In this document: positions 4,691 to 59,436 of the stretch, piece after piece
Numbering within the stretch: the stretch's first letter is position 1
Layout of the letters: each line of letters starts with the position of its first letter
Source of the DNA: Thermoplasmata archaeon
GTDB lineage: Archaea > Thermoplasmatota > Penumbrarchaeia > JAEHCK01
NCBI GenBank assembly: GCA_020696345.1
Contig: JAEHCK010000002.1
Location: 6,057-70,056 of the forward strand
Direction of reading: 5' to 3'
Length of the DNA: 64,000 nucleotides
Translations under genes and position numbers: made by a program
The notes under the pieces: generated by a model
Seen by the model: only the letters and a program-made list of their open reading frames with translations
The model's database searches: none
Told to the model about the DNA's origin: nothing

Positions 4691-4790
4691 CCGTTTAAAG
4701 AAAACGTCCTACGGTTTCGAAACTCGTATCGTAACACGTTTAACGGTAAACGGTAAAGTGCCGTTAGACGAAACCGTTGGACGATACAAG
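4691..4790. repeat. CG-rich 7-nt-periodic palindromic element
   Basis: cgtaaca/cgtttaa/cggtaaa/cggtaaa heptamers. 4705-4719 (cgtcctacggtttcg) is 14/15 reverse-complementary to 4769-4783. Confidence 0.6.
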
Positions 4791-5024
4791 ATAAAACTCT
4801 TCAAGTTTAATCTAGACCTCAAAATTCGTTCATATTTTAAAATTTTCAATTTTGACGTCGAGCCTCGAAAACGTTAAACGAGGTCGCTAGACAAAATCCG
4901 GAATCATTTAGTTTAATTTTATTAATTCGGCAAAGCGGCACAAATTCTCAAAAGGTGCCTAAATTATTAATAGTATATTTCCATTATATATAAATAATAA
5001 AATTGCACACTGGGGGCATCAACC

Positions 5025-5165
5025 ATGTGGAACCAGAAGGTCATAGCAATCATGCTAATATTGATAATGTCTAGTTTAATTTTTACTTCTGGGTTTGATG
5101 ATTCAAACGATGATCCAGTAAACTATGATATGCTCGAGGTTTATAAAATGGGATGGATCTTATGA
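5025..5165 (+). CDS. Small 46-aa ORF with signal-peptide-like N-terminus (possible gene remnant)
   Basis: MWNQKVIAIMLILIMSSLIFTSGFDDSNDD...GWIL*. Its TGA overlaps the ATG at 5162 (ATGA). Preceded by GGGGG and an AT-rich TATA-like tract. Confidence 0.4.
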   Translation: MWNQKVIAIMLILIMSSLIFTSGFDDSNDDPVNYDMLEVYKMGWIL

Positions 5166-8100
5166 AACTATTTAATGTAATATTAGCAATATTGTTGATA
5201 ATGGCATCTATGCTCATTATCCAAACCGATGTCAATGCACTAAGATATTCAATGGACACTGATCTATCGAATGCGGATGCATCATTCATTGGCGAGGATG
5301 CGGATGATAATTCCGGAATTTCGGTAGCGGGTGCAGGTGATGTCAACGGCGATGGCTACGACGATGTACTGATCGGAGCCTACTTAGATGATGATGGAGG
5401 AAACGATGCTGGTCAAACATACCTAATACTCGGAAACGCGACTGGGTGGGCTATGGACATCGACCTGTCCAACGTAGACGCATCATTTATTGGCGAGGAC
5501 GGGGGTGATTGGTCTGGACGTTCGGTGGCGGGTGTGGGCGATGTGAACGGCGATGGCTACGACGACATACTGATCGGTGCTTGGGGTGATGATGACGGAG
5601 GAAGCGGTGCTGGCCAGACATACCTCATATTGGGCAAGGCCTCCGGCTGGGCCATGGACGCAGATTTGGCGAACGCGGATGCATCATTCATTGGCGAGGA
5701 CGCAAGTGATCGTTCCGGATACTCGGTGGCGGGTGCAGATGACGTCAATGGTGATGGGTATGACGATATACTGATCGGAGCCTACTATGATGAGGATGGA
5801 GGAACTTATGCTGGCCAGACATACCTCATACTAGGAAAAGCGACCGGCTGGGTAATGGACACTAGCCTTTCGAACGCAGATGCATCGTTCATTGGCGAGG
5901 ACGCGGACGATCGTTCTGGATACTCGGTGGCGAGTGCCGGTGATGTCAATGGTGATGGGTATGACGATATACTGATCGGAGCCTACTATGATGAGGAGGG
6001 AGGATCCGGTGCCGGGCAGACATACCTAATACTCGGAAATGCGACTGGGTGGGCCATGGACATCGACCTGGCCAATGCAGATGCATCATTCATTGGCGAG
6101 GATGCAAATGGGGAGTCCGGACGGTCGGTGGCGGGTGCGGGTGACGTCAATGGCGACGGTTACGATGATATACTGATTGGGGCCTACTACGATGATGAAG
6201 GAGCAATGCGTGCCGGCCAGACATTCCTCATACTCGGAAAAGCGACTGGTTGGGCCATGGACATAGACCTGGCTAACGCGGATGCTTCATTCATAAGCGA
6301 TATGATAAATGATTATTCCGGATGGTCGGTGGCGGGTGCGGATGACGTTAATGGCGACGGATACGACGACATACTGATCGGTGCCTATGGAGATGATGAT
6401 GGAGGATTATCTGCCGGCCAGACATACCTTATTTTGGGCAAGGCCTCTGGCTGGGCCATGGACAAAAATCTGGGGAACGTTGATGCATCATTCATTGGCG
6501 AGGATGAAAGTGATCGTTCCGGATACTCGGTGGCGGGTGCGGGTGACGTCAATGGCGACGGCTACGACGACATACTGATCGGGGCCTATAAAGATGAGGA
6601 TGGAGGATTCGAGGCTGGGCAGACCTATTTGATATTCCCGGACGCTAACTCCAAACCCAAATCAATAACTTCGGTGAAGGCCTATTCTGATGATTCGTTT
6701 TCAGTTGAGGTATCAAAGGCAGATGTAAATGATACTATCTATATCGAATTGCAGGGAACAGATGGAAACTCCAGTCGATCCGATATCGCCATTGTAAATG
6801 TCAGAAGCAGTGATAGCCATCCCATCGGTTTTAATCTTAGATTATATGAATCCGGTTTAAATACCGGCAAATATCGTGGAAACTTTACAATAAGAAACAG
6901 AACTCACGGCGGTCATCGTTGGATAATGGCATCCATTGGTGAGATAATTACAATTTCCTCAATACAAGATCCTTCCAAGAATGCGACGATTTTACTCGGA
7001 GAACTTGTTCTTTATCCAATCACAGATGATCTCACTGCTCAAGAAGACATCCAATATAACAAACAATATTCAACATATGACATATCCAATATAAATTGGT
7101 TTTTTGAGACCAATGCATCCTGGTTGGAGTGGAATGAAACTTCTCATAACGTCTCGGGCACACCAAACAATGGTGATGTTGGCAGTTACTGGGTGCGAAT
7201 CAATATTTCAATGGGCTCTAGCTTTTCTGATGAACACAATTTCACCTTAGTTGTTAAAAACACACCACCAAATATTACAACTGAGAATATTATAACCACC
7301 GTACAGAACCAAAAATATTCTGTGGATTATAATAGTTCTGACGACGGTCAGGGCATCATTACATGGCACTTGGCGACAAATACATCCTCATGGCTGCAGA
7401 TCAATACAATTAGTGGCAACCTGACCGGGATACCAACGAATGCAGATGTGGGTTCATGTTGGGTGAATGTATCGGTGGACGATGGTAACTGCGGTTGGAA
7501 CTCAACGAATTTTACTCTATTTGTTTCAAATGCGAATGACGCGCCAGAAATTTTCACAAACGATTTACTCACTGCATTCGAGGATGAGGGATATAAGGTC
7601 ACTTATGAAGCAGTAGATAATGATACTGTTTATGGTGATATAATAACCTGGCACATGGATTCGAACACATCATTTCTTGCAATGGATAGCGCCAGTGGCG
7701 TGCTCTCAGGAACACCCACGAACGATGATGTGGGCATCTATTGGGTGAATGTAACCGTCTCTGATTTGATACTAACAAGCGATTCACATAACTTCACAAT
7801 GACGGTAATTAATGTTAATGACCCGCCGTTGATCACCAGCGAACCGATCATTGAAACTATAGCTTTAGATCCATATGAATATCAATTAAATGTAACTGAT
7901 GTGGATATCGGAGATATTCTTACATACTCTCTTGACACCTGCCCGGATAACATGGTGATAAACGAAGACTATGGTTTGATCACCTGGATACCAGATCCGG
8001 AACAAATCGGCGAAAATCCGGTAATAGTTCGGGTCGGTGACGGTAACGAATCGGACACTCAAGAGTTCAATATTAAAGTAACTACGCCTGCTAACTATGC

Positions 8101-9763
8101 ACCGTGGGTTACACTAATTTATCCAGCTAATGGCTTCACAGTGAATGTGACCAATCCAACACTCACCTGGTCGTCCGAGGACCCAGATTCCGAGGTAATA
8201 CAATACGATGTATATTTACACGCCGATCAGTCTAAAATACAGACAGTAGATCTCATAAGCCGGTTCTCCACCGGCCAAACGGACGACTCATACATGGCAA
8301 CAGGCCTTACAAAAGGAAGTGTATATTATTGGACCGTCATACCCAATGATGGAGAGTCCACGGGATATTGTTCGAGTGGAATCTGGTGGTTCAAAGTATC
8401 CGAGACCGCTGCATTAAATATTGCACCTGTGATAACCAGCAAACCCGTCAAAAGCGCGGTAGTTGGTGAACAGTATCGTTATGAAGTACTAGCAGAAGAT
8501 GATGATCAGGATGATGTGCTAACATACTCTTTGATCGAGCACCCAACAAAGATGGCTATTAATACTGGTTTAGGAATCATTCTTTGGACTCCAAGTGAAG
8601 ACCAACTTGGGAAGCATACAGTTACCGTTAAAGTATCCGATGGCAAGTCATTCGGGATACAGACATTTGAGATCGAAGTGACTTTAAAAAATAATAAACC
8701 AGTGGTCACGATAATACCCGAGCAAACCATTATGGTTGGCGAGGAGTTGAGCTATCAGGTTGCGGCGAACGATCTGGATACTACGGATATATTAACATAT
8801 CGGCTGGAGAACGCGCCAACCGGCATGGTGATCAATTCAACTGGTATGATAACCTGGGTGCCTAATAAAGATCAGGTTGGTAAACATACCATTACAATCA
8901 ATGTCTCGGATGGTAAGGATCATACATCAATTGAGTTCACGGTCAATGTAAAAAAAGAAGACACGACATCTAGTGGTTTTGATTCTACAATACAGGCGAG
9001 CATAATAATTGTAATTATTATAGTCATAGTTCTGCTGGCATTGGCAATGATCATGGTGAAAAGAAAGAAAACACAGAAAGAAAAAGATAAAGTAGCATCT
9101 CTTGGCATCTCGGATCAAGAAACACCACAGTCCGAGATGATGCCACCACCAGCTGCTCCGCAAACTGCACCTGTCACGCCAGTTGCTCAGCAGACCACAC
9201 AGACGACCATGACCACCGTCGAAAGCACGATCCTGGCAGCACCGGCCCAGGCTACATCACAATTGGGCGCGGCACCGGTTCCGGAAGTAACCGGCAGCCA
9301 GTTAACTCAGGCACCCCAAGTACCTCAAGCACAACCAACACCACAGCTGCCGCCGGCCACAGCAACCGAACCAGAACCGGCCCCTATCCCTCAACCAGAG
9401 ATGTCACCGGAAACTATTATGCCAACAGTTGAAACACCGATAATGGGGTTAGAACCGCAGCCTACCGCAGACTTACCTTCTGATACATATGTTCAGCCGC
9501 AGGTGCAGCAACCGCAACCTCAGGCATTGCAGCCGCAAGTACAACCGCAGCATCCACAAAATGCACAACCACAACCACAACCAACTTCAGCCACACCCAC
9601 ACACCCAATCAGGGGTCAGGGGTCACAATTCGGTGGTCAGGGACTCTTAACTCCCCAAACCCCACAACCCACACACTCACAAACTCATACAAAAACTCCA
9701 CCGGCTCAGCCGACACAACAACCACCATCAACCCAGACTCAGCACGGACAGTACAAGGACTAA
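5153..9763 (+). CDS. Type I membrane surface protein: 7 FG-GAP (integrin-alpha-like) repeats, cadherin/Ig-like domains, TM helix, P/Q/T-rich cytoplasmic tail
   Basis: Seven ~67-aa repeats SGxSVAGAGDVNGDGYDDILIGAY..GQTYLILG. Repeated N..P.ITS.P...Y.Y...A.D.D..D.LTYSL...P..M.I....G.I.W.P modules. TM IIIVIIIIVIVLLALAMIMVKRKK. Start may be 5162. Confidence 0.9.
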   Translation: MDLMKLFNVILAILLIMASMLIIQTDVNALRYSMDTDLSNADASFIGEDADDNSGISVAGAGDVNGDGYDDVLIGAYLDDDGGNDAGQTYLILGNATGWAMDIDLSNVDASFIGEDGGDWSGRSVAGVGDVNGDGYDDILIGAWGDDDGGSGAGQTYLILGKASGWAMDADLANADASFIGEDASDRSGYSVAGADDVNGDGYDDILIGAYYDEDGGTYAGQTYLILGKATGWVMDTSLSNADASFIGEDADDRSGYSVASAGDVNGDGYDDILIGAYYDEEGGSGAGQTYLILGNATGWAMDIDLANADASFIGEDANGESGRSVAGAGDVNGDGYDDILIGAYYDDEGAMRAGQTFLILGKATGWAMDIDLANADASFISDMINDYSGWSVAGADDVNGDGYDDILIGAYGDDDGGLSAGQTYLILGKASGWAMDKNLGNVDASFIGEDESDRSGYSVAGAGDVNGDGYDDILIGAYKDEDGGFEAGQTYLIFPDANSKPKSITSVKAYSDDSFSVEVSKADVNDTIYIELQGTDGNSSRSDIAIVNVRSSDSHPIGFNLRLYESGLNTGKYRGNFTIRNRTHGGHRWIMASIGEIITISSIQDPSKNATILLGELVLYPITDDLTAQEDIQYNKQYSTYDISNINWFFETNASWLEWNETSHNVSGTPNNGDVGSYWVRINISMGSSFSDEHNFTLVVKNTPPNITTENIITTVQNQKYSVDYNSSDDGQGIITWHLATNTSSWLQINTISGNLTGIPTNADVGSCWVNVSVDDGNCGWNSTNFTLFVSNANDAPEIFTNDLLTAFEDEGYKVTYEAVDNDTVYGDIITWHMDSNTSFLAMDSASGVLSGTPTNDDVGIYWVNVTVSDLILTSDSHNFTMTVINVNDPPLITSEPIIETIALDPYEYQLNVTDVDIGDILTYSLDTCPDNMVINEDYGLITWIPDPEQIGENPVIVRVGDGNESDTQEFNIKVTTPANYAPWVTLIYPANGFTVNVTNPTLTWSSEDPDSEVIQYDVYLHADQSKIQTVDLISRFSTGQTDDSYMATGLTKGSVYYWTVIPNDGESTGYCSSGIWWFKVSETAALNIAPVITSKPVKSAVVGEQYRYEVLAEDDDQDDVLTYSLIEHPTKMAINTGLGIILWTPSEDQLGKHTVTVKVSDGKSFGIQTFEIEVTLKNNKPVVTIIPEQTIMVGEELSYQVAANDLDTTDILTYRLENAPTGMVINSTGMITWVPNKDQVGKHTITINVSDGKDHTSIEFTVNVKKEDTTSSGFDSTIQASIIIVIIIVIVLLALAMIMVKRKKTQKEKDKVASLGISDQETPQSEMMPPPAAPQTAPVTPVAQQTTQTTMTTVESTILAAPAQATSQLGAAPVPEVTGSQLTQAPQVPQAQPTPQLPPATATEPEPAPIPQPEMSPETIMPTVETPIMGLEPQPTADLPSDTYVQPQVQQPQPQALQPQVQPQHPQNAQPQPQPTSATPTHPIRGQGSQFGGQGLLTPQTPQPTHSQTHTKTPPAQPTQQPPSTQTQHGQYKD

Positions 9764-11156: not shown

Positions 11157-11449
11157 TATGATAGTAAAAAGAAGAAAAACTTATGACCATGGACATACAC
11201 GAGAAACAGGTGCTGACACCAGAGGTTGCGTATCAACATAAGGTCAGCCTGGCTACTCTTACGCAGGCGTCAGTGCCACAAGCCGGTCAAATTGGTCCGC
11301 CAGCTCAAATACCACAAGCCACGGGGGGGGCGCCAATGGCTCCGGTATCAACTCAGGCATTATTGTGCCCCGGATCTACAACTACTACTGCAGCACAACC
11401 AGCCACTCCCACACCCTTACACCCCTACCAGTTGTCAGTTATCAGTTGA
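11157..11449 (+). pseudogene. Orphan cytoplasmic-tail remnant of a surface-protein paralog
   Basis: MIVKRRKT-like codons, then a P/Q/A/T-rich stretch in another frame resembling the tail of 5153..9763. No ectodomain or TM. Confidence 0.45.
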
Positions 11450-11532
11450 CGGTTTTCAGTGTAATAATCTTACATTGGCAACTAACAACAAAAAACTAGA
11501 AACTATATACAACTCTCGACTCTTTAGACTCC
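11429..11532. repeat. Heptamer-periodic inverted-arm element
   Basis: cagttgt cagttat cagttga cggtttt cagt, a short loop, then aactaac aacaaaa aactaga aacta, followed by a caactct cgact tract. Confidence 0.75.
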
Positions 11533-11540
11533 AAATTTGA

Positions 11541-12920: not shown

Positions 12921-13131
12921 AATGATTGACCTGATGAGAAATCTATATTAAAAATTATGGTTCTTCTCCCAATTTTGGTAATAATAAAAAAAATTAATAT
13001 GAAAAATTGTGATTATGGGAATGTGATTGGTTGATGATGAATGCGGGAATAGTAGATGGGGGATTGGGGATAGTGAATGTGATTACGATCCATCATAAAT
13101 TCAGTTCGATTACAGTTCAGTATCTACTCAT

Positions 13132-13234
13132 CACGGTATCTGTTCAGCACCAACCCCACACGGCATCTGTCCAACATCAACCCAGCCCGGTATCTGTTCA
13201 GCATCAACCCGGCATGGCATCTTCCCAGCAACAA
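13132..13234. repeat. 27-nt tandem repeat, ~4 units
   Basis: cacggtatctgttcagcaccaacccca / cacggcatctgtccaacatcaacccag / cccggtatctgttcagcatcaacccgg / catggcatcttcccagcaacaa. Confidence 0.8.
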
Positions 13235-13299: not shown

Positions 13300-13386
13300 T
13301 TAAATGCTAAATATAACTACAATATTACCCAACTGACAATATTGTGTATTTGTTTAGAATTTAGAAATTCGAATTTAGGATTTAGC
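13300..13386. repeat. Heptamer-periodic arm element
   Basis: tttagaa tttagaa attcgaa tttagga tttag, facing an upstream aaatgctaaat arm. Confidence 0.6.
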
Positions 13387-13421: not shown

Positions 13422-14057
13422 GTGGACCCGAAGTTCGAACATTCGAAAAATGTGATCAAAGAATGCCTGGACAGATACGATAAAGTAGCAGTAGCATGCA
13501 GCTTTGGCAAAGATAGTATGGTTGTAGTTCATTTAGCCATTAGTATACAACCCGACATACCTATCTTTACAATCATGACGCCGTTAAAACCAAAAGAGAC
13601 TTTCGAGTATAAAGATAAAATGATCGAACTCTGGAACCTTAATATTACCGAGTATCGGGCAAAAAAAGATGTACCCGATGGCCTCTGGAAAACACTGCCA
13701 GACGAATGCTGCAGGATCTTAAAGGTTGAACCAACCCGTGAGGCCGTCAAAGACCTGGATGCTTGGGTCACCGGGCTGCGATGCACCGAGGGAAGGACCA
13801 GAACCGAATACCAGGAATGGGAGCTAAAAGGCGGGCTAATGAAAGTCAACCCGGTCCTGTACTGGACCGAGGCGGATACATGGAGATATATCGCGGTAAA
13901 TCAAATCCCGGTACATCCATGGTATGCTGAAGGGTACAGGTCGATAGGCTGTGCACCGTGTTCTACACCTGGCGGTGAGAACGAGCGTGACGGCCGCTGG
14001 AAGGGCACCAGCAAATGCGGCGGTGAGTGCGGAATACACACTCAGCAATTGAAATGA
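13422..14057 (+). CDS. cysH: APS/PAPS reductase (CysH family, 4Fe-4S APS-reductase-type cysteine set)
   Basis: SFGKDS, ECCRILKVEP, WVTGLR, GYRSIGCAPC, ERDGRW, ECGIH. GTG start. Confidence 0.9.
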   Translation: MDPKFEHSKNVIKECLDRYDKVAVACSFGKDSMVVVHLAISIQPDIPIFTIMTPLKPKETFEYKDKMIELWNLNITEYRAKKDVPDGLWKTLPDECCRILKVEPTREAVKDLDAWVTGLRCTEGRTRTEYQEWELKGGLMKVNPVLYWTEADTWRYIAVNQIPVHPWYAEGYRSIGCAPCSTPGGENERDGRWKGTSKCGGECGIHTQQLK

Positions 14058-14062
14058 GATTC

Positions 14063-14557
14063 AGTTGCTAGTTACTTGTTGCTAGTATTTTATGTTCAAG
14101 GGACTTCCTTAAACCAAATAACATTTTGCTGATTTCTACATGAATAATATTTAATTTTTCATATTCTTTCTTTTTCAAATAATTAAGATCAATTGACAAC
14201 TCTAGATAAACTTCTAATTCATTACATGAGCCAATAGCAATTGATATGAATTGGATAAATTCTCCAATATGATTTTTACCAGAACCTTCTGCAATATTTG
14301 CAATTATTGACGTTGATGCACGTCTCATTTGTGATGTTAATCCATATGTTTCTTCCTTAGGAAAATATCTTGTTATTTGATATATCTTTAGTGTTAATTC
14401 ATATGCTTTATTCCAGACTTTTAAATTTTTGTAACTCTTTAACATATCATCTCACCCCAATAAGTGATATTGAATAAATATCTTAATTAATATAAATAAA
14501 AAAAGTATGTGGTTTAGTGAAGGTAAATTTTTCCAACTCTCTAGCAACTAGCAACTA
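14063..14557. mobile_element. Putative cassette: four-helix-bundle gene bracketed by inverted heptamer arms
   Basis: Left arm agttgct agttact tgttgct agt (14063-14086); right arm ctagcaact agcaacta (14541-14557). The arms are mutually reverse-complementary. Confidence 0.55.
14068..14445 (-). CDS. Four helix bundle protein (23S rRNA IVP / bAvd-like family)
   Basis: YKNLKVWNKAYEL...FPKEETYGLTSQMRRASTSIIANIAEG...F..IAIGSCNELE. Visibly more AT-rich than its neighbours. Confidence 0.95.
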   Translation of the reverse strand: MLKSYKNLKVWNKAYELTLKIYQITRYFPKEETYGLTSQMRRASTSIIANIAEGSGKNHIGEFIQFISIAIGSCNELEVYLELSIDLNYLKKKEYEKLNIIHVEISKMLFGLRKSLEHKILATSN

Positions 14558-15289
14558 TAGATCATTATCAATGATTTCGATCATCTCCGGCATCTTCCCA
14601 ACAGTACCAACGAGATCACCAACAATAACCATGCAACCCTGCACACCCTTTATAGTCTCAGCCTTCTCCAATGCAGCTTGAACAGTTGCCTCAGCATCAT
14701 TTTGTTTCACACGATTCGCAACTGCACTCGCTGCCGCGTCTGACAAGAATGCCGATCTTGAAAATATTATCACTGCCTCGGCGTCACCAAAACTTATCGA
14801 ATGCCCAACCTGACCTGCGCTGGTGCATACCCCCAACGGCAAATTGTCATATCTTATTTTGAACCCCACTTGTTTTGCTACTTGGTTCTTGCCGGCATAT
14901 ATTCCAATATTCACTGACCGCTCTCCCTTGATCGAGACATCACCACCATTATCGGCCATTGCAAGTTTACATTTACACCCTGAGCCGATCATCGCCTCGG
15001 TTGCTACCTCACTGAGACCACCCGCCACTGCAGCCATGGGCCCGACGCCAGCCGCCAACCCGGCATACATCATTTCGCGAACGAACTCCGGTGCATTGAG
15101 ATCAACATCCAACGGTTCCAGTGATGCAAGAAATTCCGTATGCTCGGCAATATATTGCTCGAGTAGGGTCCGGGAATGTAATACAGCTTGTCTGGCCGAG
15201 TCAAATGCACCTGGTCTGTCACTTTTAAGTTTCATGTGTGTCTCTTTCCAGTGAAACTCATTTGAATACAGAACCTGCATCTCACTCAT
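14555..15289 (-). CDS. UPF0280 / ApbE-superfamily protein
   Basis: GVGPMAAVAG, DNGGD, GVCTSAGQVGHSISFGDAEAV, DAAASAVAN. Confidence 0.9.
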   Translation of the reverse strand: MSEMQVLYSNEFHWKETHMKLKSDRPGAFDSARQAVLHSRTLLEQYIAEHTEFLASLEPLDVDLNAPEFVREMMYAGLAAGVGPMAAVAGGLSEVATEAMIGSGCKCKLAMADNGGDVSIKGERSVNIGIYAGKNQVAKQVGFKIRYDNLPLGVCTSAGQVGHSISFGDAEAVIIFSRSAFLSDAAASAVANRVKQNDAEATVQAALEKAETIKGVQGCMVIVGDLVGTVGKMPEMIEIIDNDL

Positions 15290-15305
15290 ATCTCTCACTC
15301 ACATC

Positions 15306-20519: not shown

Positions 20520-20672
20520 TATTAATAACTGAGTATATTTTAATATTTTAATGATAAAAATGTTGAATATGCCTTGATAATAATAAGTTGTTCTATATAT
20601 CGTTGGGATGGCGGGATGTTGTAAATGATACTGAGATATCGGGATGCATAAATGATTTAACGTAAATAAATC

Positions 20673-20790
20673 AAACATCCTAATAATAGATCGTAACGTC
20701 CAACATCCTAACAATTAATCGAAATGTAGAACATCCCAATAATAAATCGAAATATAGAACATTCTAGTAATTAATCGAAATGTAGAACTT
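20673..20790. repeat. 28-29-nt tandem repeat, 4 units, with an inverted gggatg arm upstream
   Basis: aacatcctaataataagatcgtaacgtcc / aacatcctaacaattaatcgaaatgtag / aacatcccaataataaatcgaaatatag / aacattctagtaattaatcgaaatgtag. Confidence 0.85.
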
Positions 20791-39626: not shown

Positions 39627-39742
39627 GAGAGGAGAAAGGAAAGAGGGCAGAGGAAAGAGGGTCAAGATATTATTGATAAAACCCACTTCCCACTAACGCT
39701 TAAAATCATGATCGCTGAGAAGTGTCCTCTACCCACTTTCCT
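39627..39742. repeat. Dispersed palindromic element with purine-rich and pyrimidine-rich arms, copy A
   Basis: gaggagaaaggaaagaggg...aaaacccactt...atcgctgagaagtgtcctct.cccactttcct; second copy at 41176..41294. Confidence 0.85.
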
Positions 39743-39831
39743 TAAGATATGAGATATCGATTAACGACCATAAACTCTAAATCACAAAATCCATATTCAC
39801 ATCACTCTAAACTTAAAAACTAATCCGATGC

Positions 39832-39945: not shown

Positions 39946-40330
39946 AATCACCAATAACCATGTTCCAATAACCAAATAAGCTCCAATCATCAAAAATTCA
40001 ATGAATCAAACAACAATTGATCCGTGTTTGGTTATTCAGTCATTGGTTACTGGTTATTATTTGGTGATTGTTGGTTGGTTATTGGTTATTGCAATTAGCA
40101 ATATTATATCATAAAACAAGATCTCTTCAACAAAAAAAATATAAGGGACTTTCTCGATTGCCCCAACTATTCGTTGGAAAATGATTAATGCAATCACCAA
40201 ATTCCAATGACCAAATAAACACCAATTTTCAACAACTCAATGATCCAAACAATAATCCATCCGTGTTTAAGTAATTCTGTCATTGGTTATTGATTATTAT
40301 TTGGTGATTGTTGGTTGGTTATTGGTCATT
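39946..40330. repeat. Two copies of a ~140-nt palindromic (ACCAATA/TATTGGT)-periodic element
   Basis: 39946-40090 and 40192-40330. Both start aatcaccaa and end ttattatttggtgattgttggttggttattggt(t/c)att. Confidence 0.9.
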
Positions 40331-40376: not shown

Positions 40377-40510
40377 GCTCCCGTAGTGTAGACCGGTCAA
40401 TCATTTTGGCCTCTCGAGGCCTTTCTTTTGCCTGGCAAAAGAAACCCCTGGGAAAGAAAACCAGGAGCCATTGATAGCCAAGGACTCGGGTTCGAATCCC
40501 GACGGGAGCA
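40377..40510 (+). tRNA. tRNA-Glu(CTC) with 59-nt intron at 37/38 (40417-40475)
   Basis: Acceptor GCTCCCG/CGGGAGC; TTGGC-CT-CTC-G|intron|A-GCCAA; T-arm TCGGG-TTCGAAT-CCCGA. Confidence 0.92.
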
Positions 40511-41108
40511 TTATCTCTTTTTTAATAAATTGATAATGCATAGTTAATGTTCTATGCGTAATTGAGATTCGAACCCTAGAAAAAAATATGAATACATTAT
40601 GATTAAATCTTATTTTGTTCTGCCCTAAAAATTCCTTCAATAAGAAATTGGAAATAAATGGAATTTTTACGACTCGGTTACGAATCCCGACGGGAGCATT
40701 ATCTATCTTTTAATGAATTGATAATGCATAGTTAATGTTCTGTGCGTAATTGGGATTCGAACCCTAGAAAAAAATAAGAAGGAATTATAATTGAATCTTA
40801 TTTTTTTCTTGAGCTAAAAATTCCGATGATTTGATATTGAATAGGATTGGAATTTTTACCTCTCGGGTTTGAATCCATTTGTTGTATTAAGATATAATCT
40901 GAAAATGTATTGTCCTCACATATCATTACAATTGTTCGATCGTTTAAACAAAATAATCCTCAGAGAACGAGCAGGCTTATCCCAGAGTTTTGGGATGAGC
41001 GTAAAACTTTTTGCGAGGGGTAAGCCAGCGGAGTTAACTGCCAAAAAGTTTCCGTTCGAATCCCGACGGGAGCATTATCTCTTTTTTAATGAATTGATAA
41101 TGCTTAGT
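40483..41108 (+). repeat. Array of tRNA-Glu 3'-end direct repeats
   Basis: T-arm copies at 40490, 40678, 40867 (truncated, degenerate) and 41054. Units 1 and 2 are similar throughout. Confidence 0.88.
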
Positions 41109-41151: not shown

Positions 41152-41482
41152 ATGGTGGATGGTGAATTAGGTGTGAGGAGAAAGGAAAGAGGGAGGTGGG
41201 AAGAGGAAAGAGGGTTGAAATCTTGTCGTTAAAACCCACTTTCCACTAACGATTTAAATCATAATCGCTGAGAAGTGTCCTCTTCCCACTTTCCTATCAC
41301 CTACTACCTATCACCTACTACCTATCACCTACCACCTACCACCTACCACCTAATTTTAATCTACACATCAACATAATTTTCCTCTCACCTCAAGCGAACG
41401 CAGTGAGCGTACTCTCACCTCAAACCTCACTAAGCAACAATCAAGCACATTTTGCCCTTAAAATTACCAACCATTCACCATT
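41152..41482. repeat. Nested palindromic periodic element
   Basis: Outer arms atggtggatggtgaatt / aattaccaaccattcaccatt. Inside: the 39627-type element, ~8 (acct-atc/act/acc) heptamers and cctctcacctcaagcgaacgcagtgagcgtactc. Confidence 0.8.
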
Positions 41483-42259: not shown

Positions 42260-42396
42260 CTCTTCTTTTTTTGAAAAAAAAATGTTGGGAAGTCATGAGT
42301 CGAGGGTCCAGATTCATGATTTATTTTTCAAAGTTTCTTGACTACCTGACTCTCAACTCACCGAGTCTTGACTAATAATTACAAAGTAATCTAAAT

Positions 42397-43751: not shown

Positions 43752-43875
43752 AGGGTCAGGGGTAAGGAGTTAGGGGATCGGGGTGAGGTTAATGTGATTA
43801 ATTTTTAGATTTGGTTTTTGGGCTTTTCTTAGGGTTTTGTCGTATTTGGATTTGGGGACTCCCGACTCTCGACTT
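43752..43875. repeat. Heptamer-periodic inverted-arm element
   Basis: agggtca ggggtaa ggagtta gggga...gactccc gactctc gact. A related arm pair lies at 42290-42375. Confidence 0.6.
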
Positions 43876-43883
43876 ATACTTGT

Positions 43884-45437
43884 TCACATTGGAATAATTC
43901 CATGCTTACGCTTCGGTGGTTGTGCATCTTTTGATTCATAATGTCTAAACCTAAATATCAATTCCTTTCGTAAATTTGCGGGCTCCACCATACCATCCAC
44001 AATAAGCTCGCTGGCCAGTTTATAGATATCGATATCATCCCGATACTCTTTACGCAGTTTTTGAATTAGTGCTGGCCGTTCATCTTTCGGTACTTGAACG
44101 ATCTTATTATAGAACACCGCATTTATAGCGGCTTCCGGGCCCATGACCGCGATCATGGCGGTTGGCAGCACAAGACAGCTATCCGGTTCATACCCCGGAC
44201 CAGCCATGGCGTATAACCCGGCGCCATACGCTTTTCGGACGATCACCGATATCTTTGGCACCGTGGTCTCGGAGACTGCAAATATCATCTTGGCCCCGGC
44301 ACGAATTATACCGCCGCGCTCCACATCTGTTCCGATCATGAAACCTGGTACATCAGCCAGAAATAATAGAGGAATATTGAATGCATCGCACATCTCAATA
44401 AATCTCGCACCTTTATTTGCAGACTCAGAGAACAACACACCGCCCTTAACCGCCGGTTGGTTTGCTATTACACCGATCGACTTACCCTCAAGCCGGGCAA
44501 GACCTGTGATTATTTCAGGTGCGTAGAGTTTCTTTATATCGAAGAATGAATCCTTATCCACAATTCGCTCGATCAGTTCATACATGTCAAAAGGCAGATT
44601 TTCATTCTCTGGCAATATCTTTGAGATCTCTTCGGTAGGTTTACTGGGTTCAAGATTCAATAACGGTGCTGGCTTTTCATTGTAATTCTGTGGAAAATAT
44701 GTGATGTATCGACGTGTCAGGTTTATTGCCTCTTCTTCGGTTTTTACCAATATATCACCCATGCCGCTGACCGTGCAGTGCATTCTTGCCCCGCCCATCT
44801 CTTCGAGCGTAACCTTTTCTCCTATCACCATCTCCGCCATGCGCGGTGAACCCAGGTACATGCTGGCATTACCCTCGACCATGATCACGATATCGCAAAA
44901 TGCGGGTATATAAGCGCCGCCCGCCGCTGACGGGCCGAACAAACAACATATCTGCGGTATAACACCGGACAGGTTAGCTTCGTTGTAGAAGATCCGCCCG
45001 GCTCCGCGCCGACCCGGGAACATATCTATCTGATCAGTGATCCTTGCACCGGCAGAATCCACTAAATATATGAGCGGCACCTTTAATCTTGAAGCGGTTT
45101 CCTGGATGCGCAGTATCTTTTCAACGGTTCGCTTTCCCCATGAACCGGCTTTTACGGTTGAATCGTTCGCCATCACACAGGTTACCCTATTATGGATCTT
45201 ACCAACAACGGTGATAACACCATCTGCGGGTAATGTCTCATCCATACAGTTCGCTAACAACCCATCCTCCAATTGAAATTCCGGGTCTAGCAAGAGTTCC
45301 AGTCGCTCACGGACGAATAGTTTATTCTGCGCCTTCAATTTTTGATGATATTTATCGGCGCCACCTTTTTTTATACGTTCGACCTCGTCAACAACTTCCT
45401 TTTCATTTACCGTGTCTTTGCACTCCTGTTCAACCAT
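43884..45437 (-). CDS. Acyl-CoA carboxylase carboxyltransferase subunit (methylcrotonyl-CoA carboxylase beta-like)
   Basis: ANDSTVKAGSWG, LVDSAGARI, GPSAAGGAYIPA, EEMGGARMH, ADVPGFMIG, RKAYGAG, KHGIIPM. Confidence 0.92.
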   Translation of the reverse strand: MVEQECKDTVNEKEVVDEVERIKKGGADKYHQKLKAQNKLFVRERLELLLDPEFQLEDGLLANCMDETLPADGVITVVGKIHNRVTCVMANDSTVKAGSWGKRTVEKILRIQETASRLKVPLIYLVDSAGARITDQIDMFPGRRGAGRIFYNEANLSGVIPQICCLFGPSAAGGAYIPAFCDIVIMVEGNASMYLGSPRMAEMVIGEKVTLEEMGGARMHCTVSGMGDILVKTEEEAINLTRRYITYFPQNYNEKPAPLLNLEPSKPTEEISKILPENENLPFDMYELIERIVDKDSFFDIKKLYAPEIITGLARLEGKSIGVIANQPAVKGGVLFSESANKGARFIEMCDAFNIPLLFLADVPGFMIGTDVERGGIIRAGAKMIFAVSETTVPKISVIVRKAYGAGLYAMAGPGYEPDSCLVLPTAMIAVMGPEAAINAVFYNKIVQVPKDERPALIQKLRKEYRDDIDIYKLASELIVDGMVEPANLRKELIFRFRHYESKDAQPPKRKHGIIPM

Positions 45438-45438
45438 A

Positions 45439-46221
45439 TTATTCACCTTTGAATACTGGTTTGCGCTTCTCCTTGAATGCCGCTAACGCCTCCAGACGGT
45501 CCTTTGTAGGGATACATACTTCATAGGCTTCGGATTCTATCACTAGCCCTCGGCCAATATCCACATCCAATCCTTGGTTTACCGCGATCTTTGCCTGCTG
45601 GATCGCAATTGGAGAATTATTGCAGATTTTTTCGGCCATCTCCATGGCAAATTCCATTAATTTACCCTCTGGTGCGATACGATTGATAAGACCTATCTCA
45701 AGTGCCTCTTGAGCTGTCAATTGAAGTCCGAGAAACAGCATCTCCTTTGCTTTTCCGCGTCCGACCAGCCTCGGCAGTCGCTGGGTGCCGCCACCACCAG
45801 GGATTATGCCAAGTGTGACCTCGGTGAGGCCCATTCTTGCATTCGGTGAAGCGATCCGGATATCACAAGCAAGTGCAAATTCCAAACCGCCGCCCAATGC
45901 AATACCGTTTATCGCACAGATCACAGGTATTGGTAGGTTCTCAATATTTGTGAAAGTATCTCGAATGGTGTGTATGTATTGTCGCACTTCTGACATTGTC
46001 ATATTTTCACGCTCTTTCAGGTCGGCACCGGCACAGAATGCTTTATCACCTGTACCTGTTATTATTACAACCCGAATATCTCTGTCGTAATTCAGTTCTT
46101 TAATAAATTTTGCACCAGCAGCTAATGTTGACCTATCAAGCGCGTTCATTCGCTCGGGTCTGTTCAAGGTTACGATCAGGATATGCCCTTTACGCTCGGT
46201 TAAAATTGAATCTTCAGTCAT
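45439..46221 (-). CDS. Enoyl-CoA hydratase family (methylglutaconyl-CoA hydratase-like)
   Basis: [58 protein letters not shown]. Confidence 0.9.
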
Positions 46222-47791: not shown

Positions 47792-47920
47792 GGTCGATCG
47801 GTCAGCTAGTCAGTTAGTCAGCTAGTCAGTTAGTCAGCTAGTCAGCTAGTCAGTTAGTCAGTTGGTCGACTAGTCAACTGGCAGACCGATCGACCGATAG
47901 ACCGGCAGACTGGTGGACTA
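47792..47920. repeat. Octamer-periodic palindromic element
   Basis: Eight gtcag(c/t)t(a/g) units, then inverted gacc/gact octamers. ggtcgatcggtc (47792) pairs with gaccgatcgacc (47884). Confidence 0.9.
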
Positions 47921-56940: not shown

Positions 56941-57106
56941 AGTGTGTGGGTTAAGTGTGTGTGAGTTAAATCCTGAGTTAGGTATTCGGAATCATGGTGT
57001 TGAATTATCGATAGACTTAAAGATCAATAAACTGCCAAACTAGCACCTAATACCTATTTCCCGGACTCCGCCTCGAATCCGGACTCTCGACACTTGACTC
57101 TCGACT
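56941..57106. repeat. Periodic inverted-arm element(s)
   Basis: agtgtgtgggtta agtgtgtgtgagtta; taggtatt pairs with aataccta; gactctc gacactt gactctc gact runs into the rubrerythrin stop. Confidence 0.6.
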
Positions 57107-57681
57107 CAATAAGTTTCCTGGAACACTTCGAAGTATGCTGTTGGATGCGCGCATGCGGGGCATAGTCCGGGCGGTTCGGTGCCTTCGTGTATATGTCCGC
57201 AGTTGCGGCATTTCCATTGCACTGGTGCGTCTTTTTTGAATACCTTACCACTTCTTACATTTGCAAGTAATTTCCTGTACCGAGTTTCGTGTTTTTCTTC
57301 TACCTTTGCGATATTTCTGAACAGTGCAGCTGCCTCGGCCAAACCCTCTTGCTCTGCAACATCGCCCGCATCTTTATAGATCGCACTCCATTCCATGTGC
57401 TCGCCCGCGGCCGATGCCTCGAGGTTTGCGGCTGTGTCGCCGATCACACCAGCAGGATATCCTGCCGTAATTTCGACATCGCCGCCTTCGAGCAATTTGA
57501 AAAACAGTTTGGCATGTTCTTTCTCGTTCTCTGCGGTTTCCAAAAAGATCGCGGATATCTGCTCATAGCCTTCTTTCTTTGCCTGCTTGGCAAAAAAAGT
57601 ATACCTGTTCCTTGCCTGCGACTCGCCGGCAAATGACGCTAATAAATTCTTCTCTGTTTGTGTTCCTTTTACACTTGCCAT
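57106..57681 (-). CDS. rbr: Rubrerythrin
   Basis: FAGESQARNRY, ENEKEHA, GEHME, VEEKH, WKCRNCG..CPACAHP. Confidence 0.96.
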   Translation of the reverse strand: MASVKGTQTEKNLLASFAGESQARNRYTFFAKQAKKEGYEQISAIFLETAENEKEHAKLFFKLLEGGDVEITAGYPAGVIGDTAANLEASAAGEHMEWSAIYKDAGDVAEQEGLAEAAALFRNIAKVEEKHETRYRKLLANVRSGKVFKKDAPVQWKCRNCGHIHEGTEPPGLCPACAHPTAYFEVFQETY

Positions 57682-57750
57682 ATAATTTCCTCCTACTTTT
57701 GCTGTATTTTATTTCAATTAATTATTGTTCATTGATCGTGAATAATGAAT

Positions 57751-57873
57751 TAGGTCTGCGGGGTGAGTACGGTTGCTGCGCAACCTTGAGGTGTGAAGTT
57801 TATCCTATTTGCCCTTGAACTCTCCTCAAACCTCAAGCGAGGGAACCGAGCGTACGCACATCTCACACTTAGC
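57751..57873. repeat. Palindromic element of the gagtac...cttgagg family
   Basis: gagtacggttgctgcgcaaccttgagg on the left; inverted cctcaagcgagggaaccgagcgtacgc on the right. Related to 39527, 41381 and 53401. Confidence 0.7.
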
Positions 57874-57883
57874 TCAGTAATAA

Positions 57884-58405: not shown

Positions 58406-58434
58406 TTGGTCAACACCTCTGTAAAATTAACGGT

Positions 58435-58809
58435 TTATTTCTTCCATAGGCCATGAAGTGTACAATGTTCGCGTGCAGTCGCGCGATCATCCATCCCAGG
58501 AAACTCTGCCTCTGGCGCATCACCTGGTTTCAAGAACTTTCTTGAGATGTTATCCCCGGCTATGGCTTCGATAAGCTCGATGTAGTGTTCACCCTCCATT
58601 GGATGAGCTACCGATCCGACCTTAACAATAATGCCTGAATCGGTTTTTTCGATCACAGGTAGATGTTTCTCAAAGCCTGAATCCTCGATCTTGGGGTCCA
58701 ATAGTTGCATTGGCTGACCGCAGCAAACAAGTTCACCTGCACCGGTGTGCAGTACCTCTACCATATTTCCACAGATCTCGCATTTATATATTTCTAATTT
58801 TTCTGTCAT
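58435..58809 (-). CDS. dfx: Desulfoferrodoxin (superoxide reductase)
   Basis: YKCEICGN, LVCCGQPM, EKHLP, HPM..EHYI, CTLHGLW. Confidence 0.95.
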   Translation of the reverse strand: MTEKLEIYKCEICGNMVEVLHTGAGELVCCGQPMQLLDPKIEDSGFEKHLPVIEKTDSGIIVKVGSVAHPMEGEHYIELIEAIAGDNISRKFLKPGDAPEAEFPGMDDRATAREHCTLHGLWKK

Positions 58810-58836
58810 TCTTTCACCTTATTTATTTTTTGTTTT

Positions 58837-59286
58837 TTAATTTCCACAGCTATGACAATCATCAACACAAGCAGCCTTTGATTTATCTTTTTCGTCGTCA
58901 GGTAATTCACCTTTTTTCCGCTTGTAATCTTTAATTGCCTCGTGTAGTGCGTCCGCCGCCAGGTTCGAGCAGTGCATCTTCTTCGGTGGCAGACCGTCAA
59001 GCTCGTTGGCCACATCCTTGCGTGTGATCTTCATTGCCTCTTCTATGTTCATCCCCATCGCAAGCTCGGTAACCATGCTGCTCGTGGCGATAGCCGAACC
59101 GCAGCCGAATGTCTTGAACTTGATATCTGTTATTTTATCATCTTCTACTTTTATGTATATTTCCATTAGGTCCCCGCAAACGGGGTTGCCAACTTTTCCG
59201 TACCCGTCCGGATCTTCTATGGTTCCCACATTACGTGGGTTCATGAAATGCTCCATTACTTTTTCACTATATCCTACATCTGCCAT
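58837..59286 (-). CDS. iscU: Fe-S scaffold IscU/NifU
   Basis: YSEKVMEHF.NPRNVG, GNPVCGD, TFGCGSAIA, PKKMHCSNL; start MADVGY after AGGTGA. Confidence 0.95.
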   Translation of the reverse strand: MADVGYSEKVMEHFMNPRNVGTIEDPDGYGKVGNPVCGDLMEIYIKVEDDKITDIKFKTFGCGSAIATSSMVTELAMGMNIEEAMKITRKDVANELDGLPPKKMHCSNLAADALHEAIKDYKRKKGELPDDEKDKSKAACVDDCHSCGN

Positions 59287-59361
59287 ATTGATCACCTGTT
59301 TTAATTGATATTGGTAAACTTCTAAATCTGTATTGATCATTATTGAATTTTGATATTATTT

Positions 59362-59436
59362 GGAGTTTGTGAGTTTAGGGAGTTGAGAGTTTTGGGAGTT
59401 AAATGTGTTAATAGTCCCTGACTCCAAACTCCCGAC
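59362..59436. repeat. Periodic inverted-arm element
   Basis: Five gagtt units, then ccctgactccaaactcccgac. Confidence 0.6.

Follow-up and report, generated by a model that had tools for sequence, protein, structure and literature searches.

Short tandem arrays with 7-8-nt units, together with related arrays of 27-28-nt units, occupy many intergenic gaps in a Thermoplasmata archaeon, and we consider it probable (roughly 0.6) that they are the arms of small IVS-type insertion cassettes, accompanied by many gene-less derivatives. The 64,000-nt stretch of contig JAEHCK010000002.1 that we analysed, called the window here, has its full member at 14063-14557, where a gene of the family PF05635 (23S_rRNA_IVP, hereafter IVP) lies between inverted arrays. 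A complete cassette would run from a purine-rich or G-rich array through a promoter and the IVP gene to a complementary C-rich array; most copies in the genome would be gene-less arms or hairpins, taken as decayed or non-autonomous derivatives.

Both halves of such a unit have been seen before. PF05635 proteins are widespread, have solved structures and recur in rRNA genes and cas operons, and we know of no function for them. Intergenic heptamers, among them the STRR of Nostocales, the GGGAATC repeats of Xanthomonas and others in many prokaryotes, have been known for decades, to our knowledge with neither an origin nor a function assigned.

The proposed IVP cassette in the window

The cassette consists of the following features.

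14541-14557: upstream arm, CTAGCAA x2.4 on the plus strand, equivalent to AGTTGCT on the strand of the gene (TRF)
14446-14540, minus strand: leader from the upstream arm to the IVP start codon, a putative promoter judged from the sequence
14068-14445, minus strand: IVP gene, 125 aa, PF05635 23S_rRNA_IVP (Pfam)
14063-14085, no strand assigned: downstream arm, AGTTGCTAGTTACTTGTTGCTAG

The leader contains an AT-rich, TATA-like stretch and a ribosome-binding-like stretch, GGGGTGAG. The last unit of the upstream arm contains the stop codon (14555-14557) of the minus-strand gene at 14555-15298. The downstream arm, overlapped by the final codons of the IVP gene, begins 6 nt past the stop codon of the plus-strand gene at 13422-14057, and the cassette therefore fills the entire gap between two convergent genes. 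One of these neighbours encodes a PAPS-reductase domain; the other is protein-coding and belongs to the coenzyme-M cluster. The overlap of arms with stop codons, previously read from the sequence, recurs at 57106-57108, where the final unit of a second array (57063-57108) contains the rubrerythrin stop codon. We rejected an rRNA IVS in the strict sense, as the cassette lies between protein-coding genes and an Rfam scan of the window returned tRNAs only.

A four-helix-bundle gene had been proposed for one of the repeat sites, and profile searches agree: the ORF at 14068-14445 matches PF05635 with E = 9.4e-41 (138.8 bits, cut-off 33.8) over 105 of 106 profile positions. It also matches the bAvd profile (E = 2.8e-7) and, in the PDB, 2GSC (XCC0516; E = 8e-19) and 2RLD (E = 9.5e-13), for each of which five chains are deposited. 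By homology, the product is predicted to be an Avd-like four-helix bundle related to pentameric four-helix bundles. The motif GxxRxxxSxxxNxxE is reported as conserved (PMC3936711), and the translation has R-x3-S-x3-N-x2-E inside QMRRASTSIIANIAEG, with a residue other than G at position -3.

Short-period arrays and their inverted partners

We scanned 0.826 Mb of crudely defined intergenic DNA for tandem arrays using TRF, with dinucleotide shuffles as the control; gene calling was crude, with greedy ORFs of at least 90 aa taken as genes, which leaves the intergenic boundaries approximate. Period-7 arrays numbered 488 in real and 49 in shuffled intergenic DNA, an excess of ~10-fold that upholds the periodicity earlier claimed for the gaps, and further excesses were found at periods 8 (192 versus 52), 14 (212 versus 12), 16 (111 versus 3), 27 (114 versus 1) and 28 (133 versus 0). 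Coding DNA showed no enrichment of period-7 arrays (142 real, 137 shuffled). The 732 arrays found genome-wide resolve into 176 distinct heptamers, the five commonest accounting for 61, 45, 34, 21 and 21 arrays, so the unit sequence does vary by site, as the sequence-only reading had stated. Fourteen-mers with at least five copies cover 29% of the intergenic fraction, against 3.6% in coding sequence. CRISPR arrays were ruled out, since the units run head-to-tail at periods of 7, 8, 14, 16, 27 or 28 nt without spacers.

Within the window, TRF reported period-7/8 arrays at or beside 4742, 11429, 13353, 14541, 40028, 41293, 47801 and 59359, and the top autocorrelation lag was 7, 8, 14 or 16 at 10 of the 11 listed sites; at 59362 it was 9, with lags 16 and 7 close behind. 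The repeat sites outside the cassette, none assigned to a strand, are listed below.

4705-4783: gene-less palindrome; 15-nt arms, 93% complementary, 49 nt apart; z = -4.3
11429-11460: CAGTTRT array, 7 nt x2.7 or 14 nt x2.3; z = -0.8
13115-13234: 27-nt tandem array, GTTCAGCATCAACCC..., belonging to the window's most abundant repeat (depth as high as 462)
13353-13385: TTTAGAA x4.7 array within a short inverted repeat (TRF); z = -2.3
20589-20788: 28-nt arrays with an inverted GGGATGT / ACATCCC core (TRF)
39946-40090: gene-less palindrome; 57-nt ACCAATA-type arms, 70% complementary, 31-nt loop; z = -3.25
40192-40324: degenerate second copy of the 39946-40090 element, 246 nt downstream; z = -1.9
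41168-41352: GAGGAAA x5.6 and CCTACCA x8.6 arrays; 40-nt inverted arms; z = -4.05
42297-42372: GAGTC and GACTC units directly 3' of the HMG-CoA reductase stop codon; z = -0.7, weak
43857-43879: single GACTC-type array adjoining the stop codon of the minus-strand gene at 43884-45446; z = 0
47792-47910: octamer array GTCAGCTA x9.5, then AGACCGAT units; partly self-complementary; z = -4.2
57063-57108: GACTCTC-type array; z = -1.0
59359-59440: gene-less palindrome; GGGAGTT-type units, loop, AACTCCC-type units; z = -3.3

Several of these sites share sequence with IVP loci, and BLAST matched only 3 of the 11 listed gene-less sites to the flanks of an IVP locus in the source genome. Flank matches at three IVP loci were found for the array at 11429-11460, the best of them 20 nt at 100% with C257:41733, and also at three for the palindrome at 59359-59440, which lies between nifS and nifU-like genes. 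The palindrome at 4705-4783, which includes an AACGGTA x2.3 array (4742-4757), belongs to a repeat of up to 48 copies whose family also flanks a partial IVP gene at C158:5096, and the 12-mer GACTCTCGACTC is common to the 57063-57108 array and the downstream arm of the IVP gene at C257:36338. Many copies of the 13353-13385 stretch occur in the related genomes G001, G002 and G003, and the arms around one IVP gene in G003 (L137) are built of its TTTAGAA motif. The families of the longer-period arrays also flank IVP genes, at C158:396 and C21:4588 for the 27-nt array and at C26:28668 and C110/C47 for the 28-nt arrays. No IVP-bearing member was found for the ACCAATA, CCTACCA and GTCAGCTA families, which, like the small number of sites matched by BLAST, speaks against the cassette reading. 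A conserved 70-nt core lies between the arms at 41168-41352 and is found again at 39636-39743; the array at 43857-43879 has no inverted partner; and the palindrome at 39946-40090 is among the few in which the C-rich arm comes first.

DNA fold-back energy was better than in at least 197 of 200 shuffles at 6 of 11 sites (4691, 13354, 39946, 41298, 47801 and 59362) and was not significant, against 200 shuffles each, at 11429, 40192 (where nine shuffles reach its energy), 42350, 43857 and 57083. For 170 of the 802 arrays in the genome, an inverted partner scoring at least 24 lies no more than 300 nt away; shuffled flanks yield 11, and there are 87 direct matches. The palindromic architecture that had been ascribed to the sites is thus supported by the six folds and by the genome-wide partners, but not at the other five sites, and the claim of one common architecture fails, with about half of the listed sites being single arrays without significant fold-back. 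That only about one-fifth of arrays have a detectable inverted partner, and that five of the 11 listed sites fail to fold back, counts against the cassette reading.

Inverted pairs are polarized. The left arm has more G than C in 36 of 46 inverted array pairs and more C than G in five, and on either strand it is mostly the 5' arm that is rich in G or purines. G.U is not preferred among arm-to-arm mismatches (88 sense versus 82 antisense, with 302 transversions), and hence there is no sign of selection on an RNA stem, a point against the cassette reading. An origin in local polymerase slippage, a process known to favour heptamers, would make the arrays ordinary simple-sequence repeats rather than distinct elements and leave their inverted pairing incidental; it seems to us quite improbable. 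It can draw on the cited portions of earlier reports, in which heptamers are over-represented in many prokaryotes and slippage is proposed (PMC4692102, with reference to a 2007 survey), Methanosarcina is rich in short-unit satellites (PMC6749651) and copy number differs among Coxiella strains (PMC4990558), but it sits poorly with the polarity of 36 to 5 and with inverted partners 15 times commoner than with shuffled flanks. Identical units and loops also recur at dozens of loci (GATCAGA between AAAAGTT and AACTTTT arms), and the copy-number distribution is flat at 2-4 units and then drops, with no steady decay. Membership of the sites in repeat families spread over the genome, and the tie to one gene family across two domains, likewise favour the suspicion, already voiced from the sequence, of something more than ordinary local slippage.

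IVP genes across genomes and at filled and empty sites

The source genome (G000) has 22 IVP matches, 10 of them truncated or with stop codons, and ~700 period-7 arrays. An inverted exact match of at least 12 nt between the 200-nt flanks was found for 6 of 12 IVP genes and for 1.5% of 3163 crudely called genes. The IVS arrangement, an ORF in the loop of a terminal-inverted-repeat stem, is present in the window, where arms 14541-14557 and 14063-14085 match in inverted orientation (locus L115), and at 20 of 25 related loci in the source genome and its relatives (G000, G001, G002, G003 and G005), these 20 lying above the 95th percentile of 600 mismatched flank pairs. Inverted alignment scores of at least 26 were obtained at 11 of 16 IVP loci in other genomes of the phylum (GC-rich archaea) and at 6 of 6 IVP loci on cyanobacterial plasmids. 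The four-helix-bundle gene is therefore no one-off: IVP genes are systematically bracketed by arms.

IVP is present in G000-G003 and G005 and was found in 0 of 26 other class relatives. Among sampled genomes, array density follows IVP count, in line with the comparison of element and four-helix-bundle gene numbers that had been suggested as a check, and sampled class relatives without IVP have almost no period-7 arrays. With arm motifs labelled by eye on IVP trees, sister proteins had a common motif in eight pairs and different motifs in five. Distant IVP clades do not conserve their motifs, and GGGTGTA and GGAGTCA recur in unrelated clades, which weakens the case for a fixed protein-motif pairing.

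Filled and empty sites could be compared on Nostoc plasmids. In three of them, just 3 nt separate the stop codon of an integrase gene from the start codon that follows; at this spacer N. punctiforme carries a ~710-nt insert with IVP, bounded at one end by GGGTGTR x4 and at the other by its complement. The arm-gene-arm unit occurs there whole or not at all, precisely at the boundary of two genes, and because the empty sites are a 3-nt spacer without an array, the arrays appear to arrive with the gene. No target-site duplication was visible at the one filled/empty junction inspected. The sequence-only reading had made such filled/empty polymorphism a touchstone, and we saw it at this single plasmid site, which is cyanobacterial, not archaeal. 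In addition, all six period-7 arrays of at least four copies in 50 kb of the N. punctiforme plasmid adjoin its two IVP genes.

These data bear on whether the arrays came first. They could be prior host elements, serving at gene boundaries as transcript-end, RNA-processing or protein-binding sites, with IVP genes inserting secondarily into palindrome centres; we think this rather unlikely. The excess of ~700 arrays over 22 IVP matches fits such elements, as do the many arrays abutting stop codons and the switching of arm motifs between IVP clades. The genome does contain modules tied to transcript ends, as a separate dispersed A-run/hairpin/T-run module lies no more than 30 nt from 52 gene 3' ends and only eight 5' ends. 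Against prior host elements, the empty Nostoc sites lack the array, strong heptamer arrays in the 50 kb of plasmid are confined to IVP genes, and close IVP genes keep their arms across loci and genomes.

We regard as highly improbable that the arrays are of REP/REPIN or MITE type and owe their movement to a conventional transposase, such as an IS200/IS605-type Y1 enzyme acting on hairpins, with IVP irrelevant. The genome does have 15 Y1-transposase matches, and the hairpin repeats resemble REPINs, whose RAYT genes carry their own flanking repeats in the cited part of PMC3116915. However, an inverted flank match of at least 11 nt was found at 0 of 10 Y1 genes inspected, which speaks against a REPIN-RAYT system, and none of these genes lay between short-period arrays; every cassette inspected held IVP as its sole gene, with no transposase gene inside. 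A MITE was also rejected, for although inverted ends are present, the Nostoc junction shows no target-site duplication and no transposase-encoding parent was seen among the cassettes inspected.

A possible mechanism and comparison with known systems

Under the preferred reading of IVS-type cassettes, each cassette would move as a unit into short spacers at gene boundaries, which would account for arms that abut stop codons. By analogy, the arms of a single-stranded cassette would pair into a stem and draw the host flanks together; in rRNA IVS elements, the arms pair into a stem that is cut by RNase III. The IVP pentamer may bind the repeated units in the arms of its own cassette and act in trans on gene-less copies; we know of no catalytic activity for IVP. 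A wider reading, which we hold to be unlikely as a whole, joins several further claims. PF05635 proteins would supply the trans-acting factor for mobile cassettes of a class not yet recognised, present in bacteria and archaea and with terminal inverted repeats of ~7-nt units; the cassettes and their gene-less derivatives would be the source of cyanobacterial STRR, Xanthomonas arrays and Methanosarcina-like archaeal satellites; the pentamer would hold about five units per arm; and the near-universal 5' position of the G-rich arm on both strands would stem from a telomerase-like process in which, at insertion, the two 3' ends of the break are extended with units copied again and again from a short template.

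A gene-plus-repeat unit is seen in an archaeon, in cyanobacteria and in bacterial rRNA insertions, and may explain the origin of the puzzling heptamer repeats. If heptamers and PF05635 are halves of one element, both puzzles would become open to simple experiments. The same element would account for ~29% of intergenic DNA being 14-mers of at least five copies, for repeats adjoining stop codons and for IVP genes scoring as "CRISPR-associated", and would represent a new kind of small mobile DNA, a gene-carrying hairpin element common to archaea and bacteria.

Neither heptamer repeats nor IVS elements are new in themselves. The description of the system as undescribed was overstated, as heptamer repeats, inverted Xanthomonas pairs, Methanosarcina satellites and IVS with S23p and heptamers all figure in the cited portions of PMC4692102, PMC6749651 and PMC4990558; the one published heptamer-IVS link that we found concerns the Coxiella IVS.

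The protein recalls Avd, which in diversity-generating retroelements works with a reverse transcriptase on nucleic acid and has a homologous pentameric four-helix-bundle fold, according to the cited part of PMC10053308; for IVP here, the pentameric state is predicted from homology. A diversity-generating retroelement was rejected, since the sole RVT_1 match is on contig C220, where none of the 22 IVP matches lies; no template/variable repeat pair was seen. With REPIN-RAYT systems, as portrayed in the cited part of PMC3116915, the cassettes share intergenic hairpin families, a gene flanked by its own repeats and many gene-less copies per gene. They differ in their gene, whose product is a four-helix bundle of 120 aa that is not known to act as an enzyme, whereas RAYTs are Y1 transposases, and in that the arrays do not flank the Y1 genes inspected in the source genome.

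Methanosarcina offers an archaeal parallel, with unusually many short-unit tandem repeats in genome-dispersed families for which transposition is suspected (PMC6749651); heptamer periodicity, inverted arrangement and an associated gene are absent from the cited sections of that report. The source genome has genes for cysteate synthase, sulfopyruvate decarboxylase and a methanogen-type SerRS, and one enzyme has its best named relatives in Methanoperedens and Methanosarcinales MAGs (64-66% identity).

The original STRR paper reportedly describes heptameric intergenic repeats in heterocystous cyanobacteria. STRR in the strict sense require a cyanobacterial host, and the host here is an archaeon. 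Like STRR and the Xanthomonas GGGAATC arrays, of which 70-75 pairs are in convergent (inverted) orientation, the arrays are intergenic, G-rich and built of tandem 7-nt units (PMC4692102). The cited part of that report treats such repeats as structure-forming or slippage-prone DNA and names no gene, whereas the archaeal arrays and those at 6 of 6 cyanobacterial plasmid loci bracket IVP.

The rRNA IVS are the fullest parallel in structure. Such elements in the 23S rRNA of Coxiella burnetii and Leptospira carry an S23p/IVP ORF that is prone to decay, and a mobile origin has long been proposed for them; in C. burnetii the S23p ORF occupies the loop of a hairpin, and GACAGAT is repeated in tandem two or three times, depending on the strain (PMC4990558, cited part). 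The cassettes share with these elements, so far as that part describes them, a PF05635 gene in the loop of an inverted-repeat stem, tandem heptamers by the ORF and a tendency of the ORF to degenerate. Unlike rRNA IVS, the archaeal cassettes lie between protein-coding genes, with no inspected cassette in rRNA; their arms are themselves arrays of repeated units; and a single archaeal genome holds 22 IVP matches, many arm motifs and hundreds of gene-less arrays.

IVP genes lie between inverted short-period arrays

The four-helix-bundle gene that the sequence-only reading had placed in one palindromic element of the window belongs to the 23S_rRNA_IVP family (IVP; S23p family) and sits between two AGTTGCT-type arms. 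We call the gene together with its inverted arms a cassette.

14068-14445 (−): 125-aa ORF, PF05635 23S_rRNA_IVP (E = 9.4e-41) and, less strongly, a bAvd-like match; related to solved structures 2GSC and 2RLD
14063-14557: cassette; two convergent stop codons bound the gap, which it fills completely

The archaeon's own draft genome (G000; 4.97 Mb, 272 contigs, completeness 91%, contamination 6%) is alone in its genus among the genomes compared, with relative G001 from the same family and G002 and G003 from the same order. Gene copies decay in G000, where the IVP profile matched 22 times; 12 matches are full-length and the others are truncated, stop-bearing or cut by contig ends. Reading the flanks placed nearly all copies between inverted arms, drawn from different repeat families.

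Arm motifs of IVP genes
G000: AGTTGCT and AGTTGTC heptamers
G000: GAGTC-type units (two loci)
G000: GGGATGT; GAAAATT
G000: GAGTGTGT octamers (four loci)
G000: 27- and 28-nt arrays; two longer motifs
Other genomes of the phylum (examples): GGGAAGA / TCTTCCC; GAGCGT / ACGCTC; GTTCCGR
Plasmids: GGGAGTA / TACTCCC; GGGTGTA / TACACCC (twice); GGTGACA / TGTCACC
Plasmids: GGGAAAA / TTTTCCC; AAAAGCT

Inverted exact matches of at least 12 nt between 200-nt flanks occurred at 6 of 12 IVP genes vs 1.5% of 3163 crude genes, and matches of at least 10 nt at 8 of 12 vs 10.4%. Across G000, G001, G002, G003 and G005 (a further relative in the class), 27 loci were listed and 25 scored, one being left out for its position at a contig end and another for an N-run; 20 of the 25 scored higher than 95% of 600 control pairs in which upstream and downstream flanks were mismatched. 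Upstream of many IVP genes in G000, G002 and G003 we also observed CAsTGACCCCC followed, after a few bases, by a TATA-like box (for example at C114:4252, C158:396, C21:4588 and loci L137 and L127), a pattern that suggests a putative promoter or regulatory site particular to the family.

Beyond G000, the class holds IVP matches in G002 (17), G003 (6), G001 (3) and G005 (2), with none in the 26 other class relatives searched; in the phylum, 20 of 401 sampled genomes carry the family. At 16 loci in 13 other phylum genomes, mostly of 63–74% G+C, IVP genes are again bracketed by inverted arrays of 6–8-nt units, with inverted alignment scores of at least 26 at 11 loci; two of the 16 lie at contig ends, and at one (L158) no inverted arrays were seen. 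A tblastn search of plasmids returned 27 records, mostly from heterocystous cyanobacteria (Nostoc 10, Calothrix 4, Trichormus 2, others), and heptamer arrays flanked all six plasmid genes examined, in clear inverted order in five. Two of these six cassettes, in Pseudanabaena and Anabaena sp. 90 (L165 and L169), lie between cas6 and cas4 and differ in arm motif, hinting that distinct cassette lineages reach one cas6/cas4 spacer. This placement fits published accounts of IVP in cas operons (PMC3936711, PMC10910872), and may explain the scoring of IVP as CRISPR-associated.

Array density was compared in a small sample of genomes related to one another: intergenic DNA contained 2.15 arrays of period 7 or 14 per kb in G002, 1.25 in the window, 0.85 in G003 and 0.24 in G001, and seven pooled IVP-negative genomes yielded one such array in ~13 kb. 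Within 50 kb of the Nostoc punctiforme plasmid pNPUN01, all six period-7 arrays of at least four copies lie beside two annotated four-helix-bundle genes.

Arms and gene are co-inherited, and present or absent as one unit

On an IVP protein tree with arm motifs labelled by eye, eight sister pairs have a motif in common (L131/L134, L135/L138, L136/L144, L126/L130, L115/L120, L133/L139, L167/L168 and L157/L163) and one pair, L118/L141, has similar motifs; five pairs differ, and an identical motif can also be found in unrelated clades. The arms thus follow the gene in the short term and turn over at longer distances. Strict co-evolution of clade and motif was rejected at depth: an archaeal IVP flanked by GGGTGTA did not group with the cyanobacterial ones.

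A module of an integrase and a hypothetical gene on pNPUN01 has relatives in 47 plasmid records, and IVP was annotated under the module match in three of the 25 matches listed (N. punctiforme and two Calothrix plasmids). In three IVP-less records examined, the integrase stop codon is 3 nt from the next start codon. At this same point N. punctiforme has an insert of ~710 nt, which starts with four GGGTGTR units, ends with their complement and contains the IVP gene and, in its interior, a hairpin of GGGTGTR units without a gene. As the empty sites lack the array, arms and gene are present or absent as one unit. Among the matches listed, the N. punctiforme module is 86–88% identical to IVP-less modules and ~77.5% identical to the Calothrix IVP modules; judged from these sequences, either the spacer would have been filled twice or the cassette precisely lost several times. 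No target-site duplication was evident at the N. punctiforme insert.

For the window cassette, the G001 orthologue of the adjoining stretch 14555-15298 neighbours a different gene with no IVP beside it; synteny is broken, so this junction is not a clean empty site. The same query found no match in G002 or G003.

Gene-less arrays, their polarity and neighbouring repeats

The sequence-only reading had described a window-wide family of intergenic palindromes with 7–8-nt periodic arms, and at its 11 gene-less sites the periodicity is real: at most of them TRF called a short-period array on the site itself or next to it, and the top autocorrelation lag was 7, 8, 14 or 16 at 10 of the 11. Defining intergenic DNA as that outside a greedy set of ORFs of at least 90 aa (3131 pieces, 0.826 Mb), we found TRF calls throughout G000 far above dinucleotide-shuffled sequence (period 7, 488 vs 49; period 8, 192 vs 52; period 14, 212 vs 12; period 16, 111 vs 3; period 27, 114 vs 1; period 28, 133 vs 0), with no period-7 excess in coding DNA (142 vs 137 shuffled). 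The units are non-random, since 732 period-7 rows reduce to 176 unit types, headed by AAAAGTT (61), AACTAGC (45), AAATTGG (34), ACTCTCG (21) and ACATCCC (21). In G000, 14-mers with at least five copies cover 29% of intergenic and 3.6% of coding DNA, and multi-copy sequence makes up most window intergenic gaps, to a depth of up to 462. Copy number per array is flat at two to four units (206, 183 and 177 arrays) and then drops (78, 27, 15), a distribution compatible with a preferred arm length that proves nothing on a pentamer. Array units do include stop codons, as the same reading had noticed, at 14555-14557 and 57106-57108.

The palindromic shape held in part: at six of the 11 sites the fold-back energy was exceptional, and at the other five (11429, 40192, 42350, 43857 and 57083) it was ordinary. 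Genome-wide, the background of a pairing test on exact 7-mers was high (390 arrays vs 230 with unrelated flanks), so we used an alignment scan in its place; for 170 of 802 arrays it found a significant partner in inverted orientation no more than 300 nt away, vs 11 with shuffled flanks and 87 with direct partners. Strict pairing with TRF-called partner arrays left just 46 inverted pairs among 1067 arrays. Of these, 36 have more G than C in the left arm and five have more C than G; the left arm is purine-rich in 41. A table of gene-end orientation also hinted at polarity and is confounded by nested arrays; the result therefore rests on the 46 strict pairs. Because a palindrome is identical on both strands, the polarity belongs to the element itself, whatever the direction of the neighbouring genes. 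We speculate that 5′-G-rich arms on both strands could be the trace of both 3′ break ends extended by a repeated short template. The arms presumably pair; in IVP arms, sense-strand mismatches compatible with G·U pairing were not in excess (88 vs 82), which lends no support to a selected RNA stem and, local alignments of repetitive arms being loose, does not prove against one.

When 20 window repeat sites were compared by BLAST with the flanks of the other 21 G000 IVP loci, 10 matched at E ≤ 1e-3, among them 4691, 11429 and 59362 of the 11 gene-less sites. The GACTCTC sites have a 12-mer in common with an arm of the IVP gene at C257:36338, and G001–G003 carry multiple copies of the TTTAGAA stretch at 13354, which in G003 serves as the arms around an IVP gene. 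Among the IVP loci examined, no gene-bearing member was found for the ACCAATA, CCTACCA and GTCAGCTA families. We infer that gene-less arrays come from cassettes and that the IVP protein would recognise the arms.

Several other features of the window were recorded alongside the arrays.

5153-9763: 1536-aa ORF with 201-nt internal repeats
25538-30115: 1525-aa ORF
39636-39743 and 41168-41317: two copies of a ~70-nt conserved core (…AAAACCCACTTYCCACTAACG…ATCGCTGAGAAGTG…), both held by 19–40-nt inverted arms of GAGGAAA-type units
40377-40510: 134-nt tRNA match (Rfam 44.9 bits; no ARAGORN call)
40483-41090: 188-nt tandem repeat
61511-61554: dispersed module of an A-run, then a hairpin whose asymmetric loop is conserved (e.g. 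TGCGTCAATCATTATTC...), then a T-run, adjoining the stop codon of gene 61553-61963 (−)

The two very long ORFs are probably surface proteins with no relation to the heptamer arrays. Other window genes include cysteate synthase, sulfopyruvate decarboxylase, a methanogen-type seryl-tRNA synthetase and a class-II HMG-CoA reductase, whose best named relatives are from Methanoperedens and Methanosarcinales MAGs (64–66% identity). The ~70-nt cores, without a match at the Rfam gathering score, may be a small RNA gene or other cargo. The tRNA match is probably a tRNA with a ~60-nt intron, which fits an archaeal host; its 3′ end, GGACTCGGGTTCGAATCCCGACGGGAGCA, is partly repeated near 40672, 40860 and 41055, within the tandem repeat, and these partial copies look like the traces of a tRNA attachment site into which DNA has integrated repeatedly. 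The A-run/hairpin/T-run module is a candidate two-way terminator: a loose pattern found 167 copies in G000 vs 7 in a reversed-sequence control, 52 of them within 30 nt of a gene 3′ end and eight within 30 nt of a 5′ end. G003 has similar copies as well, and the module is often fused to AAAAGTT hairpins.

Relation to known repeat systems

Three familiar systems were considered and rejected. REP elements mobilized by RAYT transposases are not indicated, as none of 10 Y1-transposase genes had an inverted flank match of at least 11 nt. A diversity-generating retroelement was discarded as a reading of the cassettes, and a CRISPR reading of the window arrays was set aside on TRF analysis of the window.

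The elements had also been thought undescribed, a description that goes too far in view of the literature. Heptamer over-representation is in print, as are inverted GGGAATC pairs for Xanthomonas (PMC4692102), abundant short-unit satellites for Methanosarcina (PMC6749651), IVP genes for cas loci and rRNA insertions of CPR bacteria (PMC3936711; bioRxiv 10.1101/2024.02.27.582315), and an rRNA intervening sequence (IVS) with an S23p ORF for Coxiella (PMC4990558). In a search of mostly open-access articles, the Coxiella paper alone joined heptamers with IVP, S23p or a four-helix bundle. Three things seem new: the general rule that inverted heptamer arrays enclose an IVP gene, the occurrence of this arrangement in archaea, and the large expansion of gene-less arrays within this order. 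The nearest worked example is the rRNA IVS: in Coxiella, RNase III cuts a stem whose loop contains the S23p ORF, and this ORF is preceded by two to three GACAGAT heptamers, whose number varies between strains (PMC4990558).
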